From assembly GCA_002305195.1 (NCBI GenBank), contig DBQK01000008.1, positions 98,688 through 162,687 on the forward strand: a stretch of 64,000 nucleotides of DNA, in the 5' to 3' direction. The DNA comes from Patescibacteria group bacterium UBA1396 (GTDB lineage: Bacteria; Patescibacteriota; Microgenomatia; UBA1400; UBA1396). Numbering within the stretch: position 1 is the stretch's first letter; each line of letters opens with the position of its first letter. The notes beneath the pieces are model-generated. The model was not told where the DNA came from. It did no database searches and saw only the letters and a program-made list of their open reading frames with translations. A program made the position numbers and the translations under genes. Below are positions 9,054 to 56,944 of this stretch, in pieces.

Positions 9054-10721
9054 ATGCTGACCAATTCACTGGCCACCAAAACTCAGTCATCGACACTTAA
9101 GAAAAAAATATCTTCACAACCCAAAAAATTTAGTTGGTCGAGAGTTTGGCACATTTGCCAAACTTGGGCTAATCAACATGAGTGGCTATTTTTATTGTGG
9201 TTATTAGTAATTATCTTGAGACTACCAAGTTTATCTGAGCCTTATTGGTATGGTGATGAAGCAATATATTTAACGATCGGCAACGCCTTAAAATTTGGGC
9301 AACGACTGTACTTAGAAATTGTGGACCATAAAACACCGCTAATCTATTACTTTGCTTCTGTCCCCAACCAATTATGGTTTCGATTATTAATGTCAGTCTG
9401 GATGTTGGCTAGTTCTTACCTTTTTTGGCGATTGGCAAATAAACTATTTCCCAGTTTAAAGGTAGCTCTATTTAGTTCAGTTTTATTTGTTTTTCTGAGC
9501 AATGTTTCATTTATGGAAGGCAATGTTCCCAATGGCGAACTGTTCGTGATTGGTTTTGTCTTAGCAGGCTTGTATTTCTTAAGCAAAACTACTTTTTTTA
9601 ATAACTGGTTACAAGCAGAAAGCCGTTCACTAACTTCCAAAGACTTATGGTTATCTTTTGTAGCGGGATTAATGTTTGGTGGTGGCGTGATGACCAAAGT
9701 GCCAGGCATATTTGACGCAATTGCCGGAGCAAGCATATTTGCATGGTTAAGTCTGCCAGGGCTTTGGTTGTTAATCAGCCCGAGGAGTTTTCGTACACCA
9801 CCACTGAAACAAACTATTTTGGGAGGCTTAATTTTTGTTGCTGGTCTTCTGTCGCCACTGATTCTATTTACTATTTATTATTGGTTTAGAGGTAGCCTGT
9901 CGGCATTCTTAGAATTTGGTCTGCTTTACAATTTTCATTACACCAGCAACTGGACTGTACCAATCGACAATATTTGGCTAGGCACACAATTTGAGCTACT
10001 TAATAAAGGTTTATGGTTAGTGTTTGGTTTACTACTGACAACCTATCTAAGTTTTATACGCTCGGCGGACAGAAAATTAATCTGGCTGTCTTGGTGGAGC
10101 TGGTTGGCTTTATTTGCTGCCTTATTGTCTAATCGCCCTTATCCGCATTACTTCTTGCAGTTAGTGCCACCATTGTCTCTGTTGGCGGCCGCCTGGTTGT
10201 TTACTAAGTCACACTGGTACTCCAAGCTTGTGGCATCCTTGCCAATTTTATTTTCGGCGGCCGCCTTAATTCTGCTGCAGTTTAAACTTTACCCTTTTGT
10301 TGATTACTATCACCAATATCTAAAGTTGGTTACGGGACAGATTTCCCAGACAGAGTATCATCAGCAATTTAATTCTCTGGTTGGTCAAAATGAGGTTATG
10401 GCTCAAACAATCATAGATAACTCATTTTCCAACGATCGATTATTTGTTTGGGGAACCAACCCAATGTTGTATGCACTGACAAAAAGAGTGCCGGCTAGTA
10501 AGTTTACGGTTGCCTTTCATATTCACGACTTGTATGCCTATCAAAATGTATTACAAGAAGTTAAGCTAGCAAAACCATCACATATAGTCGTTATGAAAAA
10601 TGAAACTAGTTGGCCTGATCTCAACGAATATCTTGGCGAGCACTATTTGAGATCGGTTGAAACTGAAGATATGATTCTCTATCGACGCAGTACTTTAACC
10701 AGCTTGATGTTGATACAATAG
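9054..10721 (+). CDS. GT-C fold integral-membrane glycosyltransferase (PMT/ArnT-like, GT39/GT83-type)
   Basis: Multi-TM N-domain with 'YWYGDEAIY' loop motif typical of polyprenyl-phosphate-sugar dependent GT-C enzymes; C-terminal soluble domain. Confidence 0.55.
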   Translation: MLTNSLATKTQSSTLKKKISSQPKKFSWSRVWHICQTWANQHEWLFLLWLLVIILRLPSLSEPYWYGDEAIYLTIGNALKFGQRLYLEIVDHKTPLIYYFASVPNQLWFRLLMSVWMLASSYLFWRLANKLFPSLKVALFSSVLFVFLSNVSFMEGNVPNGELFVIGFVLAGLYFLSKTTFFNNWLQAESRSLTSKDLWLSFVAGLMFGGGVMTKVPGIFDAIAGASIFAWLSLPGLWLLISPRSFRTPPLKQTILGGLIFVAGLLSPLILFTIYYWFRGSLSAFLEFGLLYNFHYTSNWTVPIDNIWLGTQFELLNKGLWLVFGLLLTTYLSFIRSADRKLIWLSWWSWLALFAALLSNRPYPHYFLQLVPPLSLLAAAWLFTKSHWYSKLVASLPILFSAAALILLQFKLYPFVDYYHQYLKLVTGQISQTEYHQQFNSLVGQNEVMAQTIIDNSFSNDRLFVWGTNPMLYALTKRVPASKFTVAFHIHDLYAYQNVLQEVKLAKPSHIVVMKNETSWPDLNEYLGEHYLRSVETEDMILYRRSTLTSLMLIQ

Positions 10722-10725
10722 CATT

Positions 10726-11073
10726 ATGCGCTGGCAATACTCGATTCACTCCCAAAATAAAAAGTTTCTTTTTATTTTCTTTGCTTTGCTTACTGTTAGC
10801 TTATTATTGAGTGCAATTCTGTATCTTTTTGGTCCACCGCTAATTCCTCTCTGGTATTCGTTGCCTTCTCCGGCCGAACAACTAGCTCCAAAAGTTTACT
10901 TCTGGGTTTTTCCTATTCTTAGTGTTCTGGTTGCTATCTTGGCAATTTGGCAAGGAAGAAAAAGTAATTTAGAGCACAGTTTTTATTTATCCAGATTAGC
11001 TTTTGTTAGCGGTCTGGTTTTGTTGATATTACTACTAATTGCTCAGATAAGAATAATGAAAGTGATTTTGTAA
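10726..11073 (+). CDS. small integral membrane protein
   Basis: 115 aa, three hydrophobic segments. Confidence 0.4.
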   Translation: MRWQYSIHSQNKKFLFIFFALLTVSLLLSAILYLFGPPLIPLWYSLPSPAEQLAPKVYFWVFPILSVLVAILAIWQGRKSNLEHSFYLSRLAFVSGLVLLILLLIAQIRIMKVIL

Positions 11074-11126
11074 TCTATCTGATTATTAAAATTAAATAGA
11101 ATTAAGATCAATTAGATATATTTAAT

Positions 11127-12215
11127 ATGCAACTTAATTGGGTTATTACGTGGGTTATTAGTGGCGCGGCCGCGGCCGCGGCCGCGCCACTAATAATCTC
11201 CCTCTATCAACGTCTTGGTTGGGTGGACGATCCAGCTAAACAAAAACACCCCAAGGTCGTCCATACCTATCCAGTTCCAAGAGGCGGTGGGTTGGTGGTC
11301 TCGACCGGAATTATTGCGGGCGTTGTTTTACTTAATCACTACGATCCTTCACTGAACGGCATCTTGCTGGGTGCCTTACTACTACTGATTAGTGGAACCT
11401 TGGATGATGCCTACAATTTGAGTCCGTACTTACGAATAGTGATCAATATTTTAGCCGCTGTTTGTGTAGTACTAAGCGGGATTGGGATTGACTATATCAC
11501 TAACCCTTTAGGTGAAGGCGTAATTTTCTTGAATCAGTGGCCAATTTCATTGCTGTTATTTAATCATCCTTTATCTTTTTCTTTGCCTGCCGATTTATTA
11601 GCCATTGCCTGGATAGTTTGGAATATGAACGCCGTTAACTGGGCTAAAGGTGTCGACGGCCAACTACCAGGATTTGTTAGCTTGTCGGCAATTTTTATTG
11701 CCTTGTTAGCTCTCCGTTTCATCGGCGATACTAGTCAGGTTACCGTGATTAATTTAGCCTTAAGTGTTAGCGGCGCTTATGCCGGTCTACTACTTTGGAA
11801 CAAATATCCGCAAAAAATGATGCCTGGCTATGCGGCCGGTTCGCTGGGAGGCTATTTTTTGTCGGTTTTGGCGATACTATCCGGAGCCAAGATAGCCACA
11901 GTTTTACTTTTACTGGCTATTCCCACAGCTGATGGAATTTTTACTTTGGTCAGGCGATTGGCCAAAGGCCAATCGCCTGTCTGGGGCGACCGAGCTCACC
12001 TTCATCATCGAATGCTCGACGCCGGTTGGGGGAAACGACGAATTGCTTTTTTTTATTGGGTAACAACTGCCTTGTTTGGTATTATCGCCTTACAGCTGGA
12101 TTCTAGGGCTAAACTCTATGCTATGATGGCTGCAGCAATTGTATTTACGGCAATGATTATATGGTTCAAACGCTCTATTACCTCCTCAAAACCGCCCGTC
12201 CTAGACAATGGATAA
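11127..12215 (+). CDS. MraY/WecA-family polyprenyl-phosphate N-acetylhexosamine-1-phosphate transferase (GT4 family of phosphotransferases)
   Basis: 'NMNAVNWAKGVDGQLPG' matches the NxxNxxDGxDGL motif; multi-TM. Confidence 0.7.
   Translation: MQLNWVITWVISGAAAAAAAPLIISLYQRLGWVDDPAKQKHPKVVHTYPVPRGGGLVVSTGIIAGVVLLNHYDPSLNGILLGALLLLISGTLDDAYNLSPYLRIVINILAAVCVVLSGIGIDYITNPLGEGVIFLNQWPISLLLFNHPLSFSLPADLLAIAWIVWNMNAVNWAKGVDGQLPGFVSLSAIFIALLALRFIGDTSQVTVINLALSVSGAYAGLLLWNKYPQKMMPGYAAGSLGGYFLSVLAILSGAKIATVLLLLAIPTADGIFTLVRRLAKGQSPVWGDRAHLHHRMLDAGWGKRRIAFFYWVTTALFGIIALQLDSRAKLYAMMAAAIVFTAMIIWFKRSITSSKPPVLDNG
11161..11190. repeat. perfect 30-bp GC-only palindrome (gtggcgcggccgcggccgcggccgcgccac) inside CDS, encodes poly-Ala
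   Basis: sequence equals its own reverse complement; 3x GCGGCCGC. Confidence 0.9.
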
Positions 12216-15107: not shown

Positions 15108-15152
15108 AAACTATTTTATTCTAATACGCCTGCTTGTGGGTGTCACTGGGAA

Positions 15153-16742
15153 TTATGGCTGCTTAGCTATCAGATAAATCAGTGGCCCACCAGGATAGTC
15201 GACTATTTTATACTCTCCCTTAGGGAAGGAACTAATCTCGTAAACAGGTGAATTAATCACTTTGTCTGCTTCCCGAGGGTTTTCGGCAATAATCACCAGC
15301 CAGTCTGCATCAGAAACATTTTCTTGAGCCACCGGCGGATGACTTGAGTTAATCAAAAAGTATCGATAATTTAACCCGCGATAGTCTTTAATTTCGGTTA
15401 AGGCTGCCAGTGAGTAGGATTGTTCTGTTGGAATTTCTCTTAGAACTGTCTGTGCCACGGCTTCCATTTTTGAAATCGGCCAACCTAAAGTATCTAGATA
15501 TTCTAGCTGCTTTGGCTGCACCTGCAGCCAACTAATGTAAATTAGTAAGCTACTTGCTAGAAGAAGTCCAGGAAGTTTCAGGTAGGTGCGAAGCCAAACC
15601 AGTATTGCACCGGTTACTAAATAAGAAATCGGGAAAAAATACGTCAAGTAATGATGGTGAACGGTTGATCTATACCAAGCCAAACCTGAAATAGTAGTCA
15701 GACAAGCAAGTAGTAATAGCCAAAAGCCGAATTGATAATGATGTTTTTTGGACCAGTGCCAACCTAAAAATGCTGTTCCAGCATAAACGCATAGTAAAGC
15801 CGTATTTAGTGATCGATATAAACTTCCCCATTCTTGTCCCCAAATCTCAAAGAAAATATGCATTGCCCGACCATGGTGTTCTTTAACAAAGGCTATTAGA
15901 CGCTCACTTATTAGAAAATTTTCACTGCCAGTGGCAGTGGTACCTGCAAAAAAATCAGTAAAGCCTTTAGCAATCACTCCATTAAATCGTAAGTTAAAGA
16001 GAACTAGCGGCAAAAAAGACAGCAAAATTATGGCTAACCCACTTAAACTAGAAATTAAAAGAGATCGAGCACGATTTGTCTGACCGATTTTAACAACTCG
16101 ATAAGAACGAACAAAATCTGCTAATAATAGGATGCCAAATGGAGCAGCGATTAACATCGCCACGTAATGCAGTTGAATCATTACTGCCCAACCTAAAGCA
16201 ACTCCAATCCACCATTTGGGCGAACCGTGCCAAGCTTTCCAACCTGCATAAAGCATCCCTAAAGTTACTATGGGGGCCGGATTGGGATTCCAACTAAATC
16301 TGGTGTAGAGATTAACATAAGGAGCGAAAGCATATAACAAAGTAGCTAGGGTGGCGGCGGTTGGTCCGACCAACCGCCGCCCAACCATAAACAATAAAGG
16401 TACGGTTATAACACCAATAATCGCTACCGCATAAGCTGGACCCAGCGGACTACCGCTGGCTAACCACAAAAATGGCGCCATAAAATAGTAATAAATTGGA
16501 CCTAGGTACATTTCACCAACACTTGTAGACGGTCCAACTAGAGTAAAATCGCCGTGTAAAATTCCATGAGCAATTATCGCATCACGACCTTGATCGGCAA
16601 GAAACTGAAGACTGTTTGGTAAGTTAAACAAACGATAAGCGGCACCAAATAAAGTAGCTATACAAACAGCTAAGTACTGCCAACGCTGAGAGTTAGAAAG
16701 CCTCACCCACCATTGTCGATACACCGTTAGCCAGTTTCTCAT
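15153..16742 (-). CDS. GT-C fold membrane glycosyltransferase (ArnT/PMT-like)
   Basis: 529 aa polytopic membrane protein with C-terminal soluble domain; paired with GT2 donor-synthase genes. Confidence 0.5.
   Translation of the reverse strand: MRNWLTVYRQWWVRLSNSQRWQYLAVCIATLFGAAYRLFNLPNSLQFLADQGRDAIIAHGILHGDFTLVGPSTSVGEMYLGPIYYYFMAPFLWLASGSPLGPAYAVAIIGVITVPLLFMVGRRLVGPTAATLATLLYAFAPYVNLYTRFSWNPNPAPIVTLGMLYAGWKAWHGSPKWWIGVALGWAVMIQLHYVAMLIAAPFGILLLADFVRSYRVVKIGQTNRARSLLISSLSGLAIILLSFLPLVLFNLRFNGVIAKGFTDFFAGTTATGSENFLISERLIAFVKEHHGRAMHIFFEIWGQEWGSLYRSLNTALLCVYAGTAFLGWHWSKKHHYQFGFWLLLLACLTTISGLAWYRSTVHHHYLTYFFPISYLVTGAILVWLRTYLKLPGLLLASSLLIYISWLQVQPKQLEYLDTLGWPISKMEAVAQTVLREIPTEQSYSLAALTEIKDYRGLNYRYFLINSSHPPVAQENVSDADWLVIIAENPREADKVINSPVYEISSFPKGEYKIVDYPGGPLIYLIAKQP
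16353..16381. repeat. 29-bp GC-rich palindrome (ggcggcggttggtc-c-gaccaaccgccgcc) inside GT-C CDS
   Basis: 14-bp perfect arms around single-nt centre. Confidence 0.85.
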
Positions 16743-19019: not shown

Positions 19020-19988
19020 TTACTGATTCGCCTGTCTAGCTGATTCCAGAATATCACCAAGTGTTTGCTCTAAGGAAGTCTCGGGTTGCCAACCAAGCTG
19101 GTTTAACTTAGATATATCAGCTACAAAATGAGGTACATCAACCGGTCTCAGCCTTGATGGATCTGTTTCAATTTCTATCTTAACCTTAGCAAGAGCGACC
19201 ATTTTTTGAACCACCTCTTTCATAGTCACCCCAGCTCCACTACCTAAATTGTAAACTTCACCACTCACACCCTGGCGTAATAATACTTCGTAGGCTTTAG
19301 CGGCGTCTCTAACATCAGTAAAATCTCTAACTGCTTCCAGGTTGCCAACCAACAATTTATCCTGTTGCCCTTTTTCAATCTTCACGATTTGGTCAGCAAA
19401 AGAAGGTAAGGCAAAATCCGTGCTTTGTCCTGGTCCAATCTGGTTAAAAGGTCGGACATGAATAATATCCAGTTGATAACTTAGTTGATAGGCTCGAGAC
19501 AATAATTCTTGCGTAGCTTTGGAAACAGCATAAGGGTTACTTGGATAAAAAGGGGCTTCTTCATTTATTGGCTGAGCTTGATATTTAGCGGGTAAAACAC
19601 CATATGCTTGAGCCGAGCCAAGGCTAATTAATCTGGCTTGCTTGGCTGCCTCCTTGATAGCTTCCAACATTACCAGTTGTAACTTGGTGTTGGTATTCAA
19701 AACTGCCTCGGCCTGCTGATAACTTTCATTTACTGAAGCGCGAGCAGCCAAGTGAATGATCCCTCTTGGTTGAAGTGTTGCTAATAAGTTCGTAACTGCA
19801 GGCTGATTAGTTAAATCAAGTGTATGAACATTATTATTACCTAGAGTTTTAGCTAATCTGGATGCCGATTCTGGTCTGAAAGCCGTACCGTGTACGTTGG
19901 TATACTGAATATTTTGTAAGTGGTTAATTATGTGTTGACCGACGAAACCATCGGCGCCGGTGATAAGTAGCACGCTATCTTTGGTCAT
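19020..19988 (-). CDS. NAD-dependent epimerase/dehydratase (likely GDP-4-keto-6-deoxy-D-mannose reductase or GDP-fucose synthase-like)
   Basis: 'LLITGADGFVGQHI' Rossmann motif, 'YAVSK' catalytic YxxxK; immediately downstream of gmd. Confidence 0.6.
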   Translation of the reverse strand: MTKDSVLLITGADGFVGQHIINHLQNIQYTNVHGTAFRPESASRLAKTLGNNNVHTLDLTNQPAVTNLLATLQPRGIIHLAARASVNESYQQAEAVLNTNTKLQLVMLEAIKEAAKQARLISLGSAQAYGVLPAKYQAQPINEEAPFYPSNPYAVSKATQELLSRAYQLSYQLDIIHVRPFNQIGPGQSTDFALPSFADQIVKIEKGQQDKLLVGNLEAVRDFTDVRDAAKAYEVLLRQGVSGEVYNLGSGAGVTMKEVVQKMVALAKVKIEIETDPSRLRPVDVPHFVADISKLNQLGWQPETSLEQTLGDILESARQANQ

Positions 19989-21288
19989 TTTTTCTCCCGA
20001 TACTAAGGTATAACCACTGGTCAGTGGAAAATTTGGCTGGGTCTAGTTGATTACGTACATCGATGAGGGTTCGGCGCTGGCCGCCGGCCAGCGCCGGCAA
20101 TGAAGCAAAATCAAACCCTACTATTTCCGGCCATTCAATCAACAATATAATCACCTCGGCGTCGGTAACAGCCTCTGCGAGAGTATCAACCAGAGATAAG
20201 TGCGGCTTGGCGCCGACTTGTCGGCGCCAAGCCGCCATCGCCATTGGATCATAAGCTTTGACTTGCGCACCTTTGTGTAGTAACTGTGGCACAACCTTTA
20301 AGCTGGGAGCTTCGCGCAAATCATCGGTATTGGGCTTAAATGAAAGACCTAAAACAGCCACTTTTTTATCTTGCCATCCGCCGATTGATTCGGCAAAATC
20401 CTGCAACTTAAGATGTGGTCGATTTTCATTTAACTCATTAATTTTATTAAATAAATTATCGCCTTGACCGACCGAGCGCGAGTAAGCTGCTAGCTCGCGA
20501 ACATCTTTGGGAAAGCAGGATCCGCCATACCCAAACCCAGGATACCAGTAATGATCACCAATTCTTTTATCGTGACCAATAATCTTGATAACTTCCTGAA
20601 CGTCAGCACCGTTTTCTTCACATAAATCCGCAATCTGATTGATAAAGGTAATTCGCTGCGCTAAATAAGCATTGGCGGTATACTTACCCATTTGAGCACT
20701 CTCAGGATTGGCGATTACAATCGGCGCTTGAAAAGGTTCGTGCAGATGTTTTAAACGCTCAATGGCTGCCGCTTCACGGCAGCCAATCACTACTCTGTCA
20801 GGGTGTAGAGTATCCTCAACCGCCGTACCCTCTCGCAAAAACTCTGGTAGTGAAGCTAAATAAAAGTTTTTATCAGTTATGGATTTAATTTTTTTAGTAA
20901 GGATTGAGAAAATTCCAGGTGGAACCGTGCTTTTGATACCAATGACCACATCATCGGCAATATACTTGGCTGATTCTTGGCAAGCAGCCTCAACATAAGT
21001 GGTGTCCGCCGTTCCATCTGGAGCAGAGGGTGTACCCACCGCTACTAAAATAACTTGTGCATCTGGGATTGCTTCTTGATAACTACTCGTAAACCTCAAC
21101 CGACCGTTTTTTAGCTCTTGTTTAAGAAGATCTGTAAGTCCGGGTTCAAAAAATGGAACCTCACCCTCCTGCAAACTCGCAACTTTGGCTGGATCTATAT
21201 CTAAACCAGTTACCTGATTCCCAAATGAGGCTAAGGCGGCGGCGGTTACAACACCAACAAAACCGGTTCCAATAACAACTACCTGCAT
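19975..21288 (-). CDS. nucleotide-sugar 6-dehydrogenase (UDP-glucose/GDP-mannose dehydrogenase family)
   Basis: 'MQVVVIGTGFVGVVTAAALA', catalytic 'GGSCFPKD'. Confidence 0.8.
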   Translation of the reverse strand: MQVVVIGTGFVGVVTAAALASFGNQVTGLDIDPAKVASLQEGEVPFFEPGLTDLLKQELKNGRLRFTSSYQEAIPDAQVILVAVGTPSAPDGTADTTYVEAACQESAKYIADDVVIGIKSTVPPGIFSILTKKIKSITDKNFYLASLPEFLREGTAVEDTLHPDRVVIGCREAAAIERLKHLHEPFQAPIVIANPESAQMGKYTANAYLAQRITFINQIADLCEENGADVQEVIKIIGHDKRIGDHYWYPGFGYGGSCFPKDVRELAAYSRSVGQGDNLFNKINELNENRPHLKLQDFAESIGGWQDKKVAVLGLSFKPNTDDLREAPSLKVVPQLLHKGAQVKAYDPMAMAAWRRQVGAKPHLSLVDTLAEAVTDAEVIILLIEWPEIVGFDFASLPALAGGQRRTLIDVRNQLDPAKFSTDQWLYLSIGRKNDQR

Positions 21289-33421: not shown

Positions 33422-33426
33422 TCTAT

Positions 33427-33744
33427 CTAACGATGCTGATATCTTCTGAATCTTGCCGATTTTTTAAACTCAAATTTACCAGTAAACATATTGAAACTAA
33501 CCATCCAATCCTCTTGATGATATCTAGATATTATCAATTCTACAATTTTTAACCAATATTTATCCCTCTCGTCTGGAGACATTTTTTTAAAATATGAAGA
33601 AAAATCTAATTCTATGGTCTGAGAATCACGTCTCGGCAGTGCTTTTCTTACTAATTCTTGATCAATAAAATCTTCAATTTCTTTGAGAATGGACTTTGCC
33701 TCCTCGGGACATGTATTCTCTGCTTCATCACGACTTATTACCAT
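33427..33744 (-). CDS. small acidic hypothetical protein, paralog A of tandem pair
   Basis: Shares 'RDEAENTCPEEAK..IEDFIDQ' and 'ISRYHQEDWMVSF' blocks with upstream paralog. Confidence 0.5.
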   Translation of the reverse strand: MVISRDEAENTCPEEAKSILKEIEDFIDQELVRKALPRRDSQTIELDFSSYFKKMSPDERDKYWLKIVELIISRYHQEDWMVSFNMFTGKFEFKKSARFRRYQHR

Positions 33745-33792
33745 CTTAATCCTCTCTAAAATACTTGGTATGATTGGTGATAAGTAACATTA

Positions 33793-39685: not shown

Positions 39686-41842
39686 TTATGGTACGCGGAT
39701 GGTGATGTCTTTATCAAGTGTAAACTCAGTTTGACCGAAGGGCGTCGCAATCTCAAATGGAATTGGGTCGGTACCGCCTTGTTTTTGCATCGACAAAACA
39801 TATTCTTTGTTATCTAAGTTGTAAGGAACACTTAGAGTTGCCCGAATTTTGGCCTGACTCATGGGGTTAAGTTTGAAAAACCCTTCAATTACATCATAAT
39901 CTTGATTTGAGGTATCGATAACCGGTTCATTCTCAAAACCAACTAGTTGCTCAACTTGAGTACCTTTAGGCACATACCATCTTGTCCAGTTATTAAGCGT
40001 GGCATTGAGACAAAGTAGTCCAGCTTCCAAATTGCAATTTGAGGCAGCGTGAGTATTGCGATAGGTTAACTCAACTTCCTTGCGCAAACGACCATTAGCA
40101 ATCTCTTGAACAGTCTGAGATCCGCTCACTTCAGTGAATAAATTAGATTTCGCCCCACCCAGATTAGCGTCTATAATCGTTAAATAATCGCCTTCCTGAG
40201 ACAGTTTTGGAATAATACCGGCCGCGTTAATAGACTGAGCGGCTAACTGCTTGTCTTCATCAAAAAAATACATCTGCGTGTGTCGACCCTCAATGCTTTG
40301 CCAAACAAGCTGCGCTAACAATGGCCATTTATCTCTGGATGTAGCGTAGGTTTTTTGAATGATTGCCTGCATCATCGGCGCTAAAATTCCCTTGCGGTCT
40401 TCTCTAATATAAGGAGTTGGCCGGTCGATAATTTCACTCAAGGCGTAAATAATCTGGGGACAACCACCGCATTGTGGATCAGGTTCGGCTGAAAAAGTTC
40501 CATAGCCAGGGACCTCAACCGGTCCCAAAACTTCAACAACATTGGCTAAAAGTACGGTGTCAACCGCAATAATGCCGTCAATGTCCTTTGGTTCGCCTCT
40601 AATTTGTTGATAATTCTCATAGAAATCAGCCATAGAATTTGCAAAATTAGGATCGATGTTCATATCGCGTAAATTCCAATAGCGCTCGGTGGTTAAATAT
40701 TTTCCCAAAGTCTCTGGAATTGGTGGCTTATTACTAAATTTCTTGTCAAGCTCATAAATATCATCAGATTTTTCCGGAGTTACTTTGCCATCTTCCACAA
40801 AAACCACGGCGTAGGCTGTCATAAAGCCACCGGTAGGACGTAATTCGTTATCATTTTGGAAAATGACTAGGTATTTTTGGCGTTCTCCGGCCCCAGCAAT
40901 GGCTGGTAATTGCTCAATAGCTGGTCTGGCGTCGGTCAAAATAGTGGCGGCTGCTTGAGCACCATCGTGGAGAGCTTTTACATAACTTCTAACCGGGTGT
41001 CCAGCAATATTTTCTGGATATTTCTGTGGGTCAATCTGTTTAGCATAATCATTCATTTCCTCGACTTTGGCGGAGATCGAGTCAAGCTGGGGTGTAATTT
41101 GAGCTAATGTTTCCAACATTAAACCGATTCTGTCCTCGGTTGTGCCTCCCTCAAAAGTGCCCTCACCACTAAAACCTAGTAAGTCGGCGTGAGGCTTAAT
41201 GGCCTCAAGGGCAAGTTGGCCGGCCTCTAGGCCGGCTAGTCCGGCCTGAAGGCCGGCCTCACCATCAAAATAATAACCCCGCACAACAGGAATGAATTTC
41301 AAATAACCCATCTTCTGGAAAGAAGTTTGCGACTTTACAAGTTGTTCTTTAGCACGACTTAAGTGTAAATCTGTTTCTGGTAAATTCTGCCTCTTAAATG
41401 AGTCATAAGCCAATCTACCCTCGGTGGCTACCTGTTGAATATCGCCCTGCACATTCCTGGCTTGAGCATAAACTGTAAATGCAGCTAAAAATAAAACAGT
41501 AATCCCGACCAATAATACACCACCGGTGATACCTACTGCTTTAAACCAACGCCTTTTTTTGGGAGAAACTCCCCGCCACCAATTCGGCAAGTTTTTCAAA
41601 CTGAATTTATCTTTGTTTTTTTCAACTGCACCTGAATTGGAAGGCAGATCATTATTTATTCTAGACACCTGATTTTTAATTCCTGATTCTGCTGAATCTT
41701 GAGTTTTTTTCGATCGCCTGGCGGTAATTGGGCTGGCAAAAACATCGTCGCCCTGATCTAGATTGCGCTCAGCAGATCGCTCAGTCTTCTTCCAATTAGA
41801 TAATAGTGTTTGATCACTCATAATGGTAGCTCCCATCACCAA
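39686..41842 (-). CDS. large membrane-anchored extracytoplasmic protein of unknown function
   Basis: 718 aa, TM 'VGITGGVLLVGITVLFLAAFTV', Ala/Gly/Leu-rich repeat region. Confidence 0.5.
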   Translation of the reverse strand: MVMGATIMSDQTLLSNWKKTERSAERNLDQGDDVFASPITARRSKKTQDSAESGIKNQVSRINNDLPSNSGAVEKNKDKFSLKNLPNWWRGVSPKKRRWFKAVGITGGVLLVGITVLFLAAFTVYAQARNVQGDIQQVATEGRLAYDSFKRQNLPETDLHLSRAKEQLVKSQTSFQKMGYLKFIPVVRGYYFDGEAGLQAGLAGLEAGQLALEAIKPHADLLGFSGEGTFEGGTTEDRIGLMLETLAQITPQLDSISAKVEEMNDYAKQIDPQKYPENIAGHPVRSYVKALHDGAQAAATILTDARPAIEQLPAIAGAGERQKYLVIFQNDNELRPTGGFMTAYAVVFVEDGKVTPEKSDDIYELDKKFSNKPPIPETLGKYLTTERYWNLRDMNIDPNFANSMADFYENYQQIRGEPKDIDGIIAVDTVLLANVVEVLGPVEVPGYGTFSAEPDPQCGGCPQIIYALSEIIDRPTPYIREDRKGILAPMMQAIIQKTYATSRDKWPLLAQLVWQSIEGRHTQMYFFDEDKQLAAQSINAAGIIPKLSQEGDYLTIIDANLGGAKSNLFTEVSGSQTVQEIANGRLRKEVELTYRNTHAASNCNLEAGLLCLNATLNNWTRWYVPKGTQVEQLVGFENEPVIDTSNQDYDVIEGFFKLNPMSQAKIRATLSVPYNLDNKEYVLSMQKQGGTDPIPFEIATPFGQTEFTLDKDITIRVP
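41218..41260. repeat. cluster of GGCCGGCC/AGGCCGGCCT palindromes inside 718-aa gene
   Basis: ggccggcctctaggccggctagtccggcctgaaggccggcctc. Confidence 0.7.
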
Positions 41843-43687: not shown

Positions 43688-44842
43688 TTACCGCATCCCT
43701 TTCCGATGTTTTTGCCACTCTGATTCAACAAATTTGATAAATTGTTTTTGCCAGGCGACCTCTGCATATTGGCTTGCTTGACGCTTAATGTCAAGTTTAT
43801 GCCAGCGCACCTGACTTGCCAAAGACATTATTTGTCTTATGGTTGCGGTTTTTTGGTCTTCAAAAAAAAGTCCATCAATGTTGGGTCTAGCAATCTCTGC
43901 TGCCCCACTAGATTTGTTAACAATTACTGGACAACCCTGGGACATAGCCTCTAAAACCACCAGACCAAAATCTTCAACTTGAGGAAAAACAGCGGCCTGA
44001 GCATTTTGCAAATACCAAGCTAGGCTGGCTTGATCAATCCAGCCTACAAACTTAATTAGTCTTCCCTGCGGATCAAGCTGGTTGGCTAGTTGGCGGAGGC
44101 GGCCTGCCAGGGGGCCGTCACCAGCAATAACTAAATTAAACTTGCCCTGGCAGGCCGCCTTAATCAATAAATCAAATCTTTTATATGCCACCAACCTCCC
44201 CCAAGTGAAAAAAAATGGTTGAGTTGGTTTATACCTTGGTTCTTGACTAACTGGTAGAGACACTAGAGGGGGATAAATTACCTTGTCAGACTGGCGACCA
44301 TAATATTTTAAACAACGTCGAGCAACCAAGTTGGATATCGCAATTATTTTATCTGGTCTTTGAGCTAACAAATAATCCCACGTTTGCAGATATTTAAAAA
44401 TTGGCTTAGCCAACCAACGAATAAAATTTGGTATCTGCTGCAAATAAAAATTTCGATGCGACCACAAATACCTAGTTGGAGTTAGTAAGTAACACAAATG
44501 CAGTTGTTCCGGCTTGGTGATAACCCCCTTAGCCGCCTCTGAGGTAACACTAATAACTAAATCATATTTTTCAAGCTCAACACTTTCAAAAATCCAGGGC
44601 ATTAACCAACCCAACCAACGATGTTTACTAGCTAAAAAAGAATTGTTCACAACTGCGTTAACTGACCATGACTTTGCCCAAGGAGCCCCTACCGGATCAT
44701 AAACCGAGGTTACTAACTCGGCTTGAGGTAATAGTTTCTTAATCTGCTTAAGAATTTGCTCGGCTCCGCCTCGACTATTTACTCGATCATAAATAACCGC
44801 TATTTTCAGATCAGCTAACTTGGCTGGAAATTGATACTGCAT
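43688..44842 (-). CDS. GT4 family glycosyltransferase
   Basis: C-terminal GT-B 'VFPQVEDFGLVVLEAMSQGCPVI' EX7E-like motif. Confidence 0.65.
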   Translation of the reverse strand: MQYQFPAKLADLKIAVIYDRVNSRGGAEQILKQIKKLLPQAELVTSVYDPVGAPWAKSWSVNAVVNNSFLASKHRWLGWLMPWIFESVELEKYDLVISVTSEAAKGVITKPEQLHLCYLLTPTRYLWSHRNFYLQQIPNFIRWLAKPIFKYLQTWDYLLAQRPDKIIAISNLVARRCLKYYGRQSDKVIYPPLVSLPVSQEPRYKPTQPFFFTWGRLVAYKRFDLLIKAACQGKFNLVIAGDGPLAGRLRQLANQLDPQGRLIKFVGWIDQASLAWYLQNAQAAVFPQVEDFGLVVLEAMSQGCPVIVNKSSGAAEIARPNIDGLFFEDQKTATIRQIMSLASQVRWHKLDIKRQASQYAEVAWQKQFIKFVESEWQKHRKGMR

Positions 44843-44854: not shown

Positions 44855-46009
44855 TTAATTAGTGTTTTTGTGGTTCAACACTGTTTCATATGCTTGCCAG
44901 GTTTTAGCCGCCGCCTTTTTCCAAGTAAAGCTTCGTGCCCACTGCTGAGCAAGTTTTAACTGCTTAATTGAGGGTGGATTTTGTTCCAAAGTTTGAAGCT
45001 TTTGCACCAAATCTTCCGGTTGATAAGGGTTAAAAAAATCAGCTTTGTCTTGATAAACTTCTCTAAAAACAGGAATGTCGGATACAACTACCGGCAAACC
45101 AACCGCTAGGGCCTCCAGTCCAGTTAAACCAAATCCTTCTGCTAAAGATGGTTGAATTAAGGCGAGAGCATTTTGGTAAATAGCCATTAGTCGTTGATCA
45201 TTTTGCCCAATTAAAATTTTTACCCTATCTGCTAATCCATTCTGCTTAACCATTTTTTTGAATTCCTGGGTGAAAACCGATCGACTGGTAGCGACAATCA
45301 GATGCAACCACTCCATTTTGGTTAGTGCTTCCAAAACAACATCGACATTCTTATGCGGGTACAAGCTGCCTGTATAAACAACGTATGGCGCCCTTTCTTT
45401 AGTTTTTGCCGCTCGTTTTTGCTCTCCCACTGATGGTGCGCTCAAAAACACCTGACTAATCCCTTCTGATGTGACCAATACCTGATTTTTACGACCAACG
45501 ATTTGCTTAATTTGTTTTTTAACCTCCTGCGTAGGAACTAAAACAACCTCAGCACTTTTAATAGCGCTTCGACTTACGAAACGATAGGCCAAGTATTTTA
45601 AACGATATTGCCAGGGAGCTAAGGTTGTGGCTCGAGGGTCACGCTGTTGATGCCAAAGCAAATCATGAATCGTAACAATGGTATCTTTTCGGTAAAGCCA
45701 AGGTACGTTAAAGTGTGGTATATGCAAGCAATCTAAATTGGCGTGGTAAAAATACCATGGTAGAACTAATTGCTCAGCTAGGCTGTAATGTTTAATCGGC
45801 ACCACCACGATCTCACACTGAGGTATATCTTTTAACCAAGGTAGTTGATTCTTGTCAGCAAGAAAAATAACCCACTTAATCTTGATTGGTAACTTATTAG
45901 TGAAATTAATGAGTTCGCGGAGAATCTCTTCACTGTATCGTCCTATACCAGCGTGCTCTATGCCGGCCAAACGAGCATCAAAACCTAATCTGAATTGTTT
46001 GGCCGGCAT
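44855..46009 (-). CDS. GT4 family glycosyltransferase
   Basis: 'LIQPSLAEGFGLTGLEALAVGLPVVVSD'. Confidence 0.7.
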   Translation of the reverse strand: MPAKQFRLGFDARLAGIEHAGIGRYSEEILRELINFTNKLPIKIKWVIFLADKNQLPWLKDIPQCEIVVVPIKHYSLAEQLVLPWYFYHANLDCLHIPHFNVPWLYRKDTIVTIHDLLWHQQRDPRATTLAPWQYRLKYLAYRFVSRSAIKSAEVVLVPTQEVKKQIKQIVGRKNQVLVTSEGISQVFLSAPSVGEQKRAAKTKERAPYVVYTGSLYPHKNVDVVLEALTKMEWLHLIVATSRSVFTQEFKKMVKQNGLADRVKILIGQNDQRLMAIYQNALALIQPSLAEGFGLTGLEALAVGLPVVVSDIPVFREVYQDKADFFNPYQPEDLVQKLQTLEQNPPSIKQLKLAQQWARSFTWKKAAAKTWQAYETVLNHKNTN

Positions 46010-46090
46010 AACATCTCCTTGAATTGGCTAAATCAATTTAGCTACCAATTACTGTCATTATGCCATTTTTAATTGGCAGTTAGCGACTGA

Positions 46091-48682: not shown

Positions 48683-50233
48683 TTAAATTTCCTCTCTTAA
48701 ATCAAAAATAATATATTCATCTGTCTCGGCTAAAACTGAATATCGGTCTCTAAGTTCATTGACCTCATCATCTTTGGTAGTTGAAACATAAAACTGTGCC
48801 CCAAGTTTAATTTTTTCTTCAATTTCAAAGCCGATTGGCCAGCCGCGTCGATTAGTTTGCCAGAGAAAAGCGGTATCACCCTGATAAGGAGCAATTACCA
48901 AAGCATCTGATGGCGTCAATTGGTCAACTGCTTTACCAGCCGAAACAATGGCTGGATTATTGATGTGAAAAAAATCACCAACGTGATACCAAGCAAAAAG
49001 CCAAGAAAAAATAATGATGGTGGATAGGGCGGCGAGCATCGCGAGCCGCCGGAAAGTAGAGGTCATACTATTAACAAGACCAACCACACCTTCGGCAAAC
49101 AGCCACACAATAATCGGCAGGAGAATAATTTGATAGTAGTCGTGCTGAACATTACCGGTGGCAAATACAATTAAATAGGCCAAAATTCCTAGCACACCAA
49201 AAATTAAGGCACCAGATTTCTCAAACCAGGTTAAAAAGAAAGAAATTATCAAATTAATCTGTTTTGGCCAGAGTGCTAAATAACGTTTAGCCACTATCTT
49301 TTCCGGAATCGAAAATACTAGACCAAAAATCAATAGCGCTGCTCCCCAATACCCAAACATCAATCTACCAATCCTATCGGCCATTAACCAACGCCACCAC
49401 GCTGGTTTTAGTCTTATGTGGTTGCCATTAAATAGCCAGTCGGAAGCGGGTATTCCAGTGGGAAAGTTTAAGATCCAGCGTCGCCAAAGCAATAAAGGAA
49501 TAACTGCAAGAATAAATGTTAAGGCTATCAAAAGTAAATTGCGGACAATGTGGCTGGCTTTGCCAACAAATCGACGTGGTCGTTCAAAAATTAACCCCAC
49601 CATTAGTGGCATCAAAAATGTCGCCATTGGTTTAACCAATAATGCTAAAGCTAACAAAAGTCCAGAAACCAATAGCCAGACAAATTTATTTCGCCTATTT
49701 GTAAGCCATTTATACCAACAAACCCAGGCCAAACTCATAAACAAGATCACAAATGGTTCGGGCAAAATTACTCGACCATAATAGATGGCATATGGCATTA
49801 AAGCCCAGGCTAGCGCGGCGGCGAGCGCCACTGATGTTCCCCGTAATTGCTTTAACAACCAATAAAAAGCACCAATGCTAACGGCGCTCGCCGCCGCGCT
49901 AGCTAAACGACTCACTACGACTAAATCCCAACCAGGATTTAACCTTAAAATAAGCGCAATAACAGCGTTAATAATCGGAAACTCCACCATTCGCCAGCCT
50001 TCTAAATTGTCTTCACCAGACTGGATATTGGATAAGTCGTGATATTTTGGTCGGAGCAAATCAATACCATTCTTAACATACTCGCGAGTAACCGAAGCAG
50101 TATCGGCTTGCCTAAAAGAGTGCCAATCAGCTAATGGAGCGTTAATTTGATACAACCTAACTACAAAAGCACCAGCAATAATAATCCAAGGCAGCCAACT
50201 ATGTAATTGTTTCTGCCACCAGGCTTTAGTCAT
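48683..50233 (-). CDS. GT-C fold membrane glycosyltransferase (ArnT/PMT-like)
   Basis: 516 aa polytopic; third paralogous GT-C type protein in window. Confidence 0.5.
   Translation of the reverse strand: MTKAWWQKQLHSWLPWIIIAGAFVVRLYQINAPLADWHSFRQADTASVTREYVKNGIDLLRPKYHDLSNIQSGEDNLEGWRMVEFPIINAVIALILRLNPGWDLVVVSRLASAAASAVSIGAFYWLLKQLRGTSVALAAALAWALMPYAIYYGRVILPEPFVILFMSLAWVCWYKWLTNRRNKFVWLLVSGLLLALALLVKPMATFLMPLMVGLIFERPRRFVGKASHIVRNLLLIALTFILAVIPLLLWRRWILNFPTGIPASDWLFNGNHIRLKPAWWRWLMADRIGRLMFGYWGAALLIFGLVFSIPEKIVAKRYLALWPKQINLIISFFLTWFEKSGALIFGVLGILAYLIVFATGNVQHDYYQIILLPIIVWLFAEGVVGLVNSMTSTFRRLAMLAALSTIIIFSWLFAWYHVGDFFHINNPAIVSAGKAVDQLTPSDALVIAPYQGDTAFLWQTNRRGWPIGFEIEEKIKLGAQFYVSTTKDDEVNELRDRYSVLAETDEYIIFDLREEI
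49809..49903. repeat. 21-bp GC-rich inverted repeat pair (gctagcgcggcggcgagcgcc ... ggcgctcgccgccgcgctagc) separated by 53 bp inside GT-C gene
   Basis: arms are exact reverse complements. Confidence 0.85.
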
Positions 50234-50234
50234 A

Positions 50235-52127: not shown

Positions 52128-53211
52128 AAATAATAATCCTTAGTCTGATACCAAATAAAAGAATCTGACGGAAAAACCAAAAATCAGTCTGTGAGGTATG
52201 TTTCGACCAAAGGTACTTTAATCCTTTAATCTCCCCTACGATTGCCTGATGGCTATCGCTACTAGCTGAGCCGAGGTGAACCACTTTACCCGCCTCCACT
52301 AGAACTACGTCCCAATGACGTCTGGTTGCTCGCCAACACAGTTCAATGTCCTCGCCATACATAAAAATACGAGGGTCAAAACCACCAATTTCTTCTAGGC
52401 AGGAGCGGGAAATCATCATTGACGTGCCACCAACCCAACCTACCTTAGCAATTTTTTTTCTCTTTAATGACCTCATATCAGCCAGGTGATGCTGGTAAGA
52501 ATTCCAAACTTTGTTAATAAAGGGAATGTCATCTAAAAAAGTTATCCAGAGGAAAATGTTGAGTAAGTTTGGTAGCGAACCGCCTTGAACCTGAATGGTT
52601 TTATCTTGATTGTAGAGCTGAGCGGCCGCGATACCAACATTATCAATCTGTTGACGAAAACGGCCTAAAACCGCTTGCGATTTCACACCGGCGTTGGTTT
52701 TAAACGATTTAACCAGATTTAATATGGTGTGTGGCTTAACGAAGGCATCGGAGTTGAGAAATAAGTAGTGGCTGGCTGGCACCAGTGCCATGCCCAAATT
52801 GTTTGCCCGACCGAAACCAATATTATGGTGTAACTCCACTAAATGAAGCTGGTGCCGACCAAGTTTGCCAGTACGAATGTTGACGACCTCTTGGTAATCG
52901 AAGGGCAGGTTTTCCCAGATTTCAGTTTTGGTCTTATTTTGTGCTTCACCCACTCTGTTAAGTAAAGCATGGTTTTTTCGTAAACGATATTTTCTAGCCA
53001 GGGATACCGCCGATCTATCGGTGGAGGCGTTATCAACAACCACGATATTAAGCTCAACACCTCTGGAACTTGATACTGCTTCCAAACAACGTCTAGTGAT
53101 ATCGGCGGTGTTAAAACTTAGAATCACTACCGTGACAGATGGTCGAGAAGTCTGACGTTTTTTCCAGGCCGAACTAGTTACATTGGAGTTGGATTTAGTT
53201 AAACTAGACAT
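52066..53211 (-). CDS. GT2 family glycosyltransferase
   Basis: 'VTVVILSFNTADIT', 'VVVDNASTD', 'LNSDAF'. Confidence 0.65.
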   Translation of the reverse strand: MSSLTKSNSNVTSSAWKKRQTSRPSVTVVILSFNTADITRRCLEAVSSSRGVELNIVVVDNASTDRSAVSLARKYRLRKNHALLNRVGEAQNKTKTEIWENLPFDYQEVVNIRTGKLGRHQLHLVELHHNIGFGRANNLGMALVPASHYLFLNSDAFVKPHTILNLVKSFKTNAGVKSQAVLGRFRQQIDNVGIAAAQLYNQDKTIQVQGGSLPNLLNIFLWITFLDDIPFINKVWNSYQHHLADMRSLKRKKIAKVGWVGGTSMMISRSCLEEIGGFDPRIFMYGEDIELCWRATRRHWDVVLVEAGKVVHLGSASSDSHQAIVGEIKGLKYLWSKHTSQTDFWFFRQILLFGIRLRIIIFGILARYGRQRAYQEALDLV

Positions 53212-53442: not shown

Positions 53443-53444
53443 GT

Positions 53445-54470: not shown

Positions 54471-54480
54471 AAGGAGTTTT

Positions 54481-55014: not shown

Positions 55015-55062
55015 CCTTAAAATGGCACTATAAATGCCAAATAGTAAAAATTAGACGATAAT

Positions 55063-55923
55063 ATGGAAAAAGAAAAAGCCATTGTTTTTGGAACCGGTTT
55101 ATCTGGTTTGGTTGGTTCGGCAATTATTGCTGGGCTAAGCAATAAATATGAGTTCGTCAATTTAGATCTTAGTCGCGGTGTGGATATTCTTGACCCCAGT
55201 AGTATTGAAAAAGTTTTGTCCTCATACCAAGGAAAAGTTTTGATTCATTTGGCGGCGTTCACGGATGTGAACGCCGCCCAACAACAAGATGGGGATAAAT
55301 CTGGAAGCTGTTGGCGAGTAAACGTTGAAGGAACAGCCAACATTGTTAAAGCTTGCCAGCAACATCAGTTGCACCTTATACATTTCAGTACAGCCTATGT
55401 TTTTGACGGTCAACAAAAAACTCCTTACCTGGAGTCTGATCCAGTTAATCCCGTAGACTGGTATAGTAAGACCAAGGCCGAGGCCGAAAAAATTGTTTCC
55501 ACCCAACTGCCTAAAGCAAGTATTTTGCGTATCAGCTTTCCATATAGTCAGCAACTATCTAGTCGTCTAGACGTATGGGATAAAATTGCACAAACTCTAA
55601 AAGATGGTCGGACTGGACCGTTTTTTAAAGATCATTTCTTTACCATGACTCCGCTTGAGTGGTTAGTTCCGGTAGTTGATTGGGCAATCGAAACTCAACC
55701 CGCTGGTATTTGGCATACCACAACCGATAAAGTTTTTTCTGATCTAAGTTTGGCCAAACTTATTGCTAACGAGCTAAACTTGCCAACATCATCGTTGCAA
55801 AGTAGTTCAGTAAGAGAATATAACCAAAAGGCAGAACGTCCCTATCAACCATACCTTGTTCTTGATAACCAAAAATTAAAAAAGGCTATGGGTCCGCGCT
55901 TCCCTCAAGAAAATGTTACGTAA
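55063..55923 (+). CDS. rfbD: dTDP-4-dehydrorhamnose reductase
   Basis: 'IVFGTGLSGLVGSAI', 'YSKTKAEAE' YxxxK; follows rfbBC. Confidence 0.7.
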   Translation: MEKEKAIVFGTGLSGLVGSAIIAGLSNKYEFVNLDLSRGVDILDPSSIEKVLSSYQGKVLIHLAAFTDVNAAQQQDGDKSGSCWRVNVEGTANIVKACQQHQLHLIHFSTAYVFDGQQKTPYLESDPVNPVDWYSKTKAEAEKIVSTQLPKASILRISFPYSQQLSSRLDVWDKIAQTLKDGRTGPFFKDHFFTMTPLEWLVPVVDWAIETQPAGIWHTTTDKVFSDLSLAKLIANELNLPTSSLQSSSVREYNQKAERPYQPYLVLDNQKLKKAMGPRFPQENVT

Positions 55924-56944
55924 TTTGATAACAAATCTAGTTTCTCGCTGGCGATTAATAATTACCGTGTTAGTGCTATTTTTTCTAGCCTATTATATTG
56001 AACTTCATCCTGATTCAATCAAATTGCCACCAGGATTATCGACACCCATACACAAACTGACACAGAGGTTGGGATTAAGCTCGGATAAAATATCAAACTC
56101 AGATTCAGTTTCTCAAAATATTTCTGCTGAACAAATCATCAGCTTTGTTGCTTCACAAAGACAGACGGCTGAACTGGCGGTACCACAAACTAATACCACG
56201 CTTGAAAAAGCAGCACGCCTTGTAGCTTTAGCAGTCGAAGATCAGCAGCAACTTACTACTGATTTATCTTTACCAGAATTACTCAAAGCAATTGGAACTA
56301 AACAGCCACCAGAATTAGAAAATTTAACCATTTTTGTTTCGGGTTTTGGTGACTTTCAACAAGCCATGATCAACCCAGAAAAACCTAGTAAACTAATTAC
56401 TCAAGCAGACTATCAACAAATTGGTGTGGCGGTTCGTCCGGCTGAATTTCAAGGGGAAATTGGTAATATTATCGTCATTTTAAGCTCACCAGATTTTGTC
56501 AATGAGGCAGAGGAAAAAGAAATGTCTAGGGATGAGGCGCCGGCCGCGGTGCGGCCGGCGCCTCCTGCCACCACTCCTACCTTCACTGGTCAAGATCTTT
56601 GGCAAGCAGTTCAGAACTATCGCCGGGCCCATCGCCTGCCAGAATTTGTACAAGCTAACGAGTTGTGCACCGTAGCCAGCATTAGACTGAATGAGCTTTT
56701 AGAACTAGGCAAACTTGACAACCACGATGGTTTTGGTCCACGAGCCGAAGAGTTTTTTGAACGTCACCCTGATTGGGACAGTATTAATGAAAATTTAGCT
56801 GCTGGGTATGAAACAGCAGTTCAAACCGTAGAATGGGGCTGGGACCAAAGTCTTGGTCATCAAGCCTTGATAAAAAGCCTTGATTACCCCAAAGCGTGCG
56901 CGGCCGCACAAAGAGGCTTTGCTGTTTTAATAACCGGCAAATAA
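55913..56944 (+). CDS. membrane-anchored CAP/SCP (PR-1-like) domain protein
   Basis: C-terminal 'YRRAHRLPEF...ENLAAG' CAP motifs; N-terminal TM. Confidence 0.5.
   Translation: MLRNLITNLVSRWRLIITVLVLFFLAYYIELHPDSIKLPPGLSTPIHKLTQRLGLSSDKISNSDSVSQNISAEQIISFVASQRQTAELAVPQTNTTLEKAARLVALAVEDQQQLTTDLSLPELLKAIGTKQPPELENLTIFVSGFGDFQQAMINPEKPSKLITQADYQQIGVAVRPAEFQGEIGNIIVILSSPDFVNEAEEKEMSRDEAPAAVRPAPPATTPTFTGQDLWQAVQNYRRAHRLPEFVQANELCTVASIRLNELLELGKLDNHDGFGPRAEEFFERHPDWDSINENLAAGYETAVQTVEWGWDQSLGHQALIKSLDYPKACAAAQRGFAVLITGK
56534..56564. repeat. GC-rich hairpin (gaggcgccggccgc-ggt-gcggccggcgcctc) inside CAP-domain gene
   Basis: 14-bp perfect arms, 3-nt loop. Confidence 0.85.

Follow-up and report, generated by a model that had tools for sequence, protein, structure and literature searches.

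We analyzed a 64-kb stretch of the genome of Patescibacteria group bacterium UBA1396 (GenBank assembly GCA_002305195.1, contig DBQK01000008.1, positions 98,688 to 162,687; here called the window, with positions counted from its first base) and found GC-rich hairpins written into the reading frames of its genes. A systematic scan returned about 18 GC-rich inverted repeats within genes, at a density of about one per 3 to 4 kb, in DNA that is 39.75% GC and about 92% coding. All 18 lie in open reading frames (ORFs) with intact frames and have both arms translated, with one partial exception (45959-46010). They are best explained as GC-rich "coding palindromes" in resident genes of a single species of the Microgenomates group. 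Comparisons with relatives showed that the palindromes arose in place, through mostly synonymous recoding plus tolerated changes toward Ala, Gly, Arg, and Pro, and that they are restricted to one lineage. Coding sequence normally contains few inverted repeats, since both arms are under constraint from the protein. The present chromosome, bacterial and free-living in style, carries strong, perfect hairpins at this density within conserved genes, a bacterial counterpart of the coding palindromes hitherto described in hairworm mitochondria. The literature searched held no description of such hairpins in the Candidate Phyla Radiation (CPR) or other bacteria.

Excess over chance and recoding in place

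An earlier note on this DNA, made by reading the sequence, had called GC-only palindromes in its genes statistically unexpected and had proposed codon shuffling as a check. Our null model consisted of 200 synonymous-codon shuffles that kept each protein sequence and the overall codon usage. Shuffling failed to reproduce the palindromes, and the excess was stronger than the note had stated: we observed 13 perfect GC-rich inverted repeats (12-nt seed), compared with 0.40 ± 0.57 in the shuffles. GC-only runs of at least 10 nt were also in excess (19 versus 5.8 expected from shuffles), as was the NotI word GCGGCCGC (nine copies versus about 0.65 to 0.75 expected). When mismatches were allowed in arms of at least 12 nt with a GC content of at least 0.7, 10 repeats were perfect, none had one mismatch, and one had two, with approximately zero expected. 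Repeats with less than 50% GC occurred at expectation (1 perfect versus 0.83; 10 with one mismatch versus 8.3). Sorted by symmetry, the loci found at k = 12 comprised 10 inverted repeats, compared with 1 direct, 4 mirror, and 1 complement repeat. Palindrome sizes form a continuum, since extensions of 2 bp or more were seen in 19% of palindromes with a GC-only hexamer core, versus 5 to 6% for AT-rich cores.

The hairpins are varied in anatomy, with loops of 0 to 68 nt and arms of 9 to 21 nt. Contrary to the earlier note, their stems are GC rich (67 to 100%) but not always purely GC. Hairpin-bearing genes lie on either strand, and the hairpins are scattered along them; by inspection, we saw neither a position preference within genes nor regular spacing. 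A codon-phase preference was tested for and not found, all three phase pairings being used equally (6, 6, and 5 times). G or C was the last base of 84% of stem codons versus 35% of codons elsewhere, and Ala made up 42% of stem codons versus 6.8% elsewhere, followed by Arg, Gly, and Pro. The hairpins share no consensus: arm sequences differ and have only generic GC words in common. CGGCCG was the most overrepresented hexamer (21 copies versus 5.8 expected) because 13 of these copies lie within hairpins; the other eight are close to expectation. The word CGCGGCCG was present in 14 copies versus 0.4 expected. About half of the hairpins contain no CGGCCG (those at 518, 16353, 20202, 44097, 49809, 55251, and 58176). 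Predicted stabilities ranged from -17 to -54 kcal/mol as RNA and from -12 to -35 kcal/mol as DNA. No T tract was seen after the stems when the adjoining sequence was inspected, so the hairpins are unlike intrinsic terminators, from which they also differ in being spread along genes rather than placed at gene ends. Stem ends were abrupt, with no excess of G.U-type pairs; extension by such pairs was tested as a sign of RNA-level selection, and none was seen.

We aligned UvrB (two sites), the MiaB-like protein, a PMT_2 glycosyltransferase, UDP-glucose dehydrogenase (Ugd; three sites), and the DUF4012 protein with relatives. No added residues were found, which upholds the earlier claim that the palindromes did not come from insertion. 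Distant homologues made the Ugd hairpin at 20072 look like an insertion of 3 residues, but this vanished against the nearest relative (L133). The MiaB and UvrB palindromes lie on conserved motifs, as had been suggested, and relatives have the corresponding motifs in mixed codons. In MiaB, the sister lineages have an identical PYSRGREASRP motif with codons such as TCA CGA GGT CGC GAA GCT TCC CGG CCA and no palindrome, whereas in the window all nine codons of SRGREASRP end in G or C (TCG CGC GGC CGC GAG GCC TCG CGG CCG), giving a 32-nt palindrome. At the N terminus of UvrB, all four sister lineages have YQP[AT]GDQP[QKA]AI in mixed codons; the window has YQAAGDQPAAI, written CAG GCG GCC GGC GAC CAG CCG GCC GCC. 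In the C-terminal region of UvrB, the arms fall 68 nt apart on GRAARH and EV(D/K to A)RRR. The earlier note's reading that the palindromes are built by codon choice where Ala, Gly, Arg, and Pro allow GC was supported. Some amino acid replacements were accepted in stems as well. These include Pro to Ala in UvrB, and the 21-nt arms of the PMT_2 gene encode Ala where homologues have Val, Ile, Met, or Thr, with protein length unchanged. Across four genes, 29 of 71 stem codons differed from all outgroups versus 27% of codons elsewhere (P = 0.016); variable regions account for the excess, with none at the UvrB and MiaB motifs.

Such repeats occur at 0.16 to 0.59 per kb in every contig of the hairpin-bearing species. 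Four syntenic sister lineages (L001, L132, L133, and L134; UvrB 69 to 71% identical, 42 to 49% GC) contained no such repeat with arms of at least 10 nt in 71 kb. In most of some 120 further loci similar in GC, the density was approximately 0 to 0.05 repeats per kb, the level expected from terminators. Absence in relatives, which the earlier note had named as a point to check in orthologues, is therefore patterned, with the whole species having the hairpins and every sister lineage being without them. The UvrB neighbors are Microgenomates-group Patescibacteria (e.g., Woesebacteria, Levybacteria, and Roizmanbacteria), the top match in the genome collection being just 71% identical. No lineage of 73 to 96% protein identity, by which the origin of the hairpins might be polarized step by step, was present in the collections searched. 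PMT_2 and UvrB queries against proteins, Ugd against metagenomes, and UvrB against genomes returned only strains with at least 96% amino acid identity or relatives with at most 73%.

Variation and maintenance among strains

More than 10 contigs from independent samples, 92 to 99% identical to the window at the nucleotide level, carry the same hairpins at up to 5 to 8% local divergence. The hairpins predate the divergence of the strains, and no strain-private hairpin was found among the strains compared. That they recur in more than 10 assemblies made independently from different samples indicates that they are not assembly artifacts. Third positions ending in G or C were polymorphic at 3 of 133 sites in stems, versus 691 of 5413 elsewhere (stratified expectation of 14.4 for the stems). 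Compared with flanks within 300 nt (126 of 1165 sites), the stem sites were about five times less polymorphic (expectation of 14.3; P = 6e-4 [by Fisher's test]). The stems are therefore actively maintained among strains. In the UvrB hairpin with a 68-nt loop, five sites vary among strains in the loop and none in the arms. Synonymous sites under strong noncoding constraint of this kind can mislead tests based on the synonymous substitution rate (dS).

Other strains carry a few hairpin variants with one mismatch. Of seven transitions that segregate in stems, six preserve pairing as G.U in the sense mRNA and one gives A.C, against a background in which C/T and A/G polymorphisms are about 1:1. All seven place G.T on the minus strand, and strand-biased C-to-T mutation therefore explains the asymmetry equally well; as its cause, this mutation bias and tolerance at the RNA level are not separable. 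A Val/Ala polymorphism in the 49809 stem (Val or Ile in outgroups) was considered as a stem-perfecting change and dropped, as the strain tree makes a recent Ala-to-Val decay equally or more parsimonious. At 56893-56908, seven successive codons (P K A C A A A) of the window strain alone differ from those of all others at five synonymous positions, which gives rise to GCGCGGCCGC between otherwise identical flanks. The pattern has the look of a recoding or conversion patch of very short extent.

Some assemblies are disturbed at the hairpins. Contig L126 starts inside the 20202-20235 hairpin (window position 20231). At 56534-56564, contig L086 ends and L083 and L085 are also affected, the assemblies breaking or carrying 6- to 10-nt deletions or Ns. 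It appears that the hairpins interfere with sequencing or assembly, breaking or corrupting the organism's short-read assemblies; alternatively, they may be truly prone to deletion. Just downstream of uvrB, a 339-nt segment (33421-33758) that holds an ORF (33427-33744; 105 amino acids, no family match) is missing in L129 to L131. Compared with L081 to L089 and L130, the window is part of a strain mosaic over 38683-60408, with identity ranging from 93% to 100% by region, which indicates frequent recombination within the species. A divergent tract at about 40190-40260 is common to some strains.

Hairpin-templated correction, selected structures, and other possible explanations

The clean contrast between a whole species with hairpins and syntenic sister lineages without them makes a repair or replication drive testable against selection on structure. 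We tentatively favor, with less than even confidence, a self-sustaining drive at the DNA level in which hairpin-templated, GC-biased correction would maintain the stems. Short GC palindromes (CGGCCG, GGCGCC, and GCCGGC) would arise at Ala, Gly, Arg, and Pro codons and would fold as stable hairpins on single-stranded DNA. Intrastrand template switching or hairpin-directed mismatch correction might then copy one arm onto the other, with an outcome presumably biased toward G:C pairs. The stem would lengthen, new mismatches would be erased by arm copying, and selection at the protein level would decide merely where stems survive. The nearly all-or-none identity of the arms in a 40% GC genome supports such a drive. 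The heterogeneous loops and arms, the missing consensus, and the equal use of phases fit a nonspecific process better than a defined functional element. The size continuum, the lack of G.U-type extension at stem ends, and the maintenance of stems among strains point the same way, and the species-specific occurrence is what changed DNA maintenance would produce.

A drive of this sort would resemble quasipalindrome correction by template switching, reportedly described by Ripley in 1982 and by the Lovett laboratory, a known mechanism that perfects and extends imperfect inverted repeats and explains the genome-wide excess and conservation of perfect ones in bacteria. The effect in Escherichia coli is modest, genome-wide, and studied mainly in noncoding DNA, whereas here there is a lineage-specific burst of long GC-only stems in conserved genes. 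In bacteria, perfect inverted repeats are documented to be produced and kept by template switching (Lavi et al. 2018, PMC5941160; Monttinen and Loytynoja 2022, PMC8794818), which is also favored as the reason why such repeats are conserved in proteobacteria (PMC5941160).

The closest known system is that of coding palindromes in hairworm (nematomorph) mitochondria (Mikhailov et al. 2019, Nucleic Acids Research, PMC6649704). In both cases, perfect inverted repeats lie in protein-coding genes, both arms encode conserved protein, and nothing is inserted; all-or-none identity, lineage-specific gain and loss, and pairs made through codon degeneracy are also common to the two. The window hairpins have three of the features by which coding palindromes are recognized, namely, intragenic translated arms, homologous conserved positions without insertion, and all-or-none identity. 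For a fourth, that the host genes are expressed and functional, the signs are indirect: the frames are open, motifs are conserved, and the strains agree. In the hairworm study, all-or-none identity is taken as an argument for conversion, and template switching or conversion is the suspected and favored cause (PMC6649704). Here, the repeats are on a bacterial chromosome with arms of 9 to 21 nt and loops of up to 68 nt, whereas those of hairworms are organellar and have arms of up to 284 bp. Our stems are strongly GC rich in a 40% GC genome, while a GC restriction is not known to have been reported for the hairworm repeats. The nematomorph repeats have unequal phases, in contrast to the equal phases here.

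Several observations weigh against the proposed drive. Compensatory double changes numbered 0 in 27 third-position pairs, with about three expected under unbiased conversion; a conversion model therefore needs added GC bias or selection. Unbiased copying would likewise give stems of about 40% GC, compared with the 75 to 100% observed; the GC bias is an assumption of the model. Candidate template-switch clusters that perfect inverted repeats among strains numbered four, versus three in the mirror-repeat control, and thus gave no clear signal; all four were short, AT-containing palindromes that are not GC rich. The low polymorphism of the stems is equally predicted by purifying selection on a functional structure, and the G.U pairs kept by six of the seven stem variants hint at constraint at the RNA level.

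It is a real, if doubtful, possibility that the hairpins are selected structural elements. They could act as RNA (mRNA stabilization or processing, or pausing of the ribosome or RNA polymerase) or as DNA (cruciforms that serve gyrase or nucleoid proteins, a role proposed for repetitive extragenic palindromic [REP] sequences and highly iterated palindrome 1 [HIP1]), and they would be written into coding sequence because a 92%-coding genome has almost no intergenic space. The close sister lineages, however, are equally compact and syntenic and have no hairpins. Selection on structure accords with the fivefold-lower polymorphism at synonymous stem sites, with the retention of the hairpins by all strains despite local divergence, with their very high predicted stability as RNA, and with GC-rich stems throughout, as selection for stability predicts. 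The conservation of HIP1 between genomes has been read as selection and as a nucleoid role (PMC5861425). The excess of G.U over A.C among the stem variants, set against the even background, also speaks for selected structures, but strand-biased mutation explains the seven variants equally well. The architecture, moreover, is not uniform in loop or arm length, inspection showed no position preference, regular spacing, or U tract after the stems, and the fixed G.U pairs or tolerated mismatches that RNA-level selection normally leaves are missing. A more specific form of this idea is that structure-defined elements evolved and are actively maintained, as perfect GC-rich hairpins in housekeeping reading frames, to fill REP- or HIP1-like roles (mRNA stability, pausing, and nucleoid or supercoil organization) for lack of intergenic space. 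We consider this form somewhat unlikely. If it is true, selection on structure overrides genome-wide codon usage, and sometimes amino acid identity, in conserved enzymes, and CPR genomes may offset scarce intergenic DNA through in-gene hairpins.

HIP1 itself is a fixed 8-nt word of cyanobacteria (GCGATCGC) that occurs more than once per gene (Xu, Lawrence and Durand 2018, PMC5861425). The likeness lies in GC-rich palindromes imposed on coding sequence by codon choice, lineage specific and conserved between genomes beyond neutral expectation. HIP1 is hyperabundant both inside and outside genes. The window has no fixed word; its palindromes are defined by structure, with varied perfect arms, and are longer and sparser. 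Conservation is thus shared with HIP1, but a single overrepresented word is not, the excess of CGGCCG and GCGGCCGC being confined to hairpins. The earlier note had suggested sites for a restriction-modification or methyltransferase system. It is improbable that a methyltransferase acting on CGGCCG or GCGGCCGC with short-patch repair, or a bias in DNA uptake and recombination like that of uptake sequences, enriches particular GC palindromic words and leaves long hairpins as a by-product. The enrichment of these words and of CGCGGCCG, the window-only patch that creates GCGCGGCCGC, and the absence of hairpins from an acquired island (1175-8631), as would hold for uptake sequences and HIP1, are in its favor. 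The CGGCCG copies outside hairpins are, however, at about expectation, about half of the hairpins do without the word, and a word bias leaves unexplained the perfect complementarity of arms 53 to 68 nt apart. The hairpins have no common motif, and the window ORFs that were scanned with Pfam, PADLOC, and NCBIfam included neither a methyltransferase nor a restriction gene.

GC-rich hairpin sequences scattered in bacterial genomes are also known as REP sequences and bacterial interspersed mosaic elements (BIMEs) and as Rickettsia palindromic elements (RPEs), the last of these in frame inside genes. REPs and RPEs have a family consensus, spread by insertion (through RAYT transposases for REPs), and bring extra sequence or residues with them. 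Here, consensus and insertion, the two features that define such elements and also MITEs (miniature inverted-repeat transposable elements), are both missing. The label "REP-like," which the earlier note had offered, therefore fits only as a functional analogy. Insertion in frame of mobile palindromic elements (RPEs, MITEs, REPs, or elements like mitochondrial GC clusters) is very improbable. The resemblance, frame-keeping GC-rich palindromes inside ORFs of a lower-GC genome, is superficial: no tested site has extra residues, orthologues have the same residues at the same length, arms coincide with conserved catalytic motifs, no element sequence is shared, and the window ORFs scanned yielded no transposase of RAYT or IS200 type. 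Finally, a chance by-product of Ala/Gly-rich, low-complexity coding or an assembly artifact is barely credible, since, even though Ala is so frequent in stems and GC-only codons limit the possible sequences, shuffles that keep protein and codon usage yield approximately zero such repeats (these and the direct, mirror, and complement controls rule out low complexity or Ala richness as the cause), inverted symmetry exceeds direct, mirror, or complement symmetry 8- to 10-fold, palindromes are lacking in relatives whose amino acids are the same, and independent assemblies reproduce the hairpins.

Catalogue of hairpins and other features of the window

All of the palindrome sites listed in the earlier note exist, with small coordinate corrections, and nine hairpins had been missed. 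Among the listed sites, two copies of GGCGGCCGCC, 62 nt apart, lie at 10184-10265 in a membrane-protein gene (9054-10721, plus strand); each copy is self-complementary, complementary to the other, and encodes Ala-Ala-Ala. The 30-bp palindrome noted at 11161-11190 is real but is only the core of a perfect 42-nt palindrome (11155-11196; 21-bp arms, no loop), which encodes VISGAAAAAAAPLII near the N terminus of a family-4 glycosyltransferase (GT4; 11127-12215, plus strand). A PMT_2 glycosyltransferase gene (15153-16742, minus strand) has a perfect 14-bp stem with a 1-nt loop at 16353-16381. The palindrome on the conserved radical S-adenosylmethionine (radical-SAM) motif PYSRGREASRP of the MiaB-like gene (27959-29143, plus strand), given as 30 bp at 28413-28442, spans 32 nt (28412-28443) and is perfect. 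In uvrB, a perfect GC-only 10-bp stem with a 5-nt loop lies at 31282-31306 on the N-terminal motif AAGDQPAAI. The site reported at 32967-33065 is present as perfect 11-bp arms (CGCCGCGCGAC/GTCGCGCGGCG; 32971-32981 and 33050-33060) around the 68-nt loop, on the motifs GRAARH and EVARRR.

The remaining listed sites lie further downstream. At 41218-41259, in the DUF4012 gene (39686-41842, minus strand), a cluster of GGCCGGCC-type complementary segments encodes EAGLQAGLAGLEAG; its 18-nt arms have two mismatches in the window strain and one in other strains. Perfect 21-bp arms with a 53-nt loop (49809-49829 and 49883-49903) encode two transmembrane segments, LASAAASA and VALAAALA, of a second PMT_2 gene (48683-50233, minus strand). 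The site at 52622-52629 is present but is only an 8-nt NotI site. A gene without assigned function (55913-56944, plus strand) contains a perfect 14-bp stem with a 3-nt loop and 93% GC (56534-56564), as well as the short GC patch GCGTGCGCGGCCGCAC at 56893-56908; the NotI site within this patch is at 56900-56907, offset from the 56896-56903 first reported.

The first of the nine additional hairpins lies at 518-549 in a phosphoribosyltransferase-like gene (9-587, plus strand); its perfect 14-bp stem (GGCTGGCGCCTGCC/GGCAGGCGCCAGCC) encloses a 4-nt loop. The GT4 gene at 11127-12215 has a second hairpin at 11951-11979 (perfect 13-bp stem, 3-nt loop, 69% GC), which has one mismatch in strain L126. 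Three are in the Ugd gene (19975-21288, minus strand): a perfect 12-bp stem closed by a 1-nt loop in a variable C-terminal region (20072-20096), a perfect 16-bp stem with a 2-nt loop (20202-20235), and a perfect 9-bp stem with a 5-nt loop (20763-20785). Two further GT4 genes on the minus strand have hairpins with longer loops. One (43688-44842) has perfect 16-bp arms and a 32-nt loop at 44097-44160. The other (44855-46009) has perfect 14-bp arms (57% GC) and a 24-nt loop at 45959-46010, spanning the start codon with its outermost base 1 nt upstream; one or two mismatches are present in other strains. The last two are a perfect 12-bp stem with a 4-nt loop at 55251-55278, in an epimerase gene (55063-55923, plus strand), and a perfect 12-bp stem with a 3-nt loop at 58176-58202, in a gene for a PD-(D/E)XK (Cas4-like) nuclease (57632-58513, minus strand).

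The window encodes UvrB, the MiaB-like radical-SAM enzyme, MiaA, LexA, FtsH, GlyRS, RecO, the DUF4012 protein, and many glycosyltransferases and PMT_2 proteins. Rfam and tRNA scans of the window found only transfer-messenger RNA (tmRNA) and tRNA-Thr, and no hairpin corresponds to a known RNA. The low-GC island at 1175-8631 (33 to 38% GC) contains genes for a DUF5677 protein (2217-3074), an OLD/GajA-like ATPase-TOPRIM nuclease (3075-4799, minus strand), and a large serine recombinase (7048-8631), along with several ORFs without a family match. The 3' end of the recombinase gene overlaps the tmRNA gene (8567-8963, minus strand), and the region 1175-8963 looks like a defense island integrated at ssrA. 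The hairpin scan of the window found no GC hairpin within the acquired island. An intergenic perfect inverted repeat (4882-4969; 13-bp arms, 62-nt spacer, 54% GC) with no Rfam match is present between the gene for the OLD-like nuclease and its neighboring ORF.

Several public metagenome-assembled genome records at L001 to L004 and at other UvrB-match loci have Patescibacteria-like UvrB and gene order, yet they are titled "uncultured Pseudomonadales" or "Gammaproteobacteria" and are probably mislabeled. Unrelated to the hairpins, the octamer AACCGTGG/CCACGGTT occurs in eight copies in the window (7784, 14654, 14870, 18890, 24962, 28826, 35600, and 35776) versus about one expected, a number that none of 100 shuffles reached.

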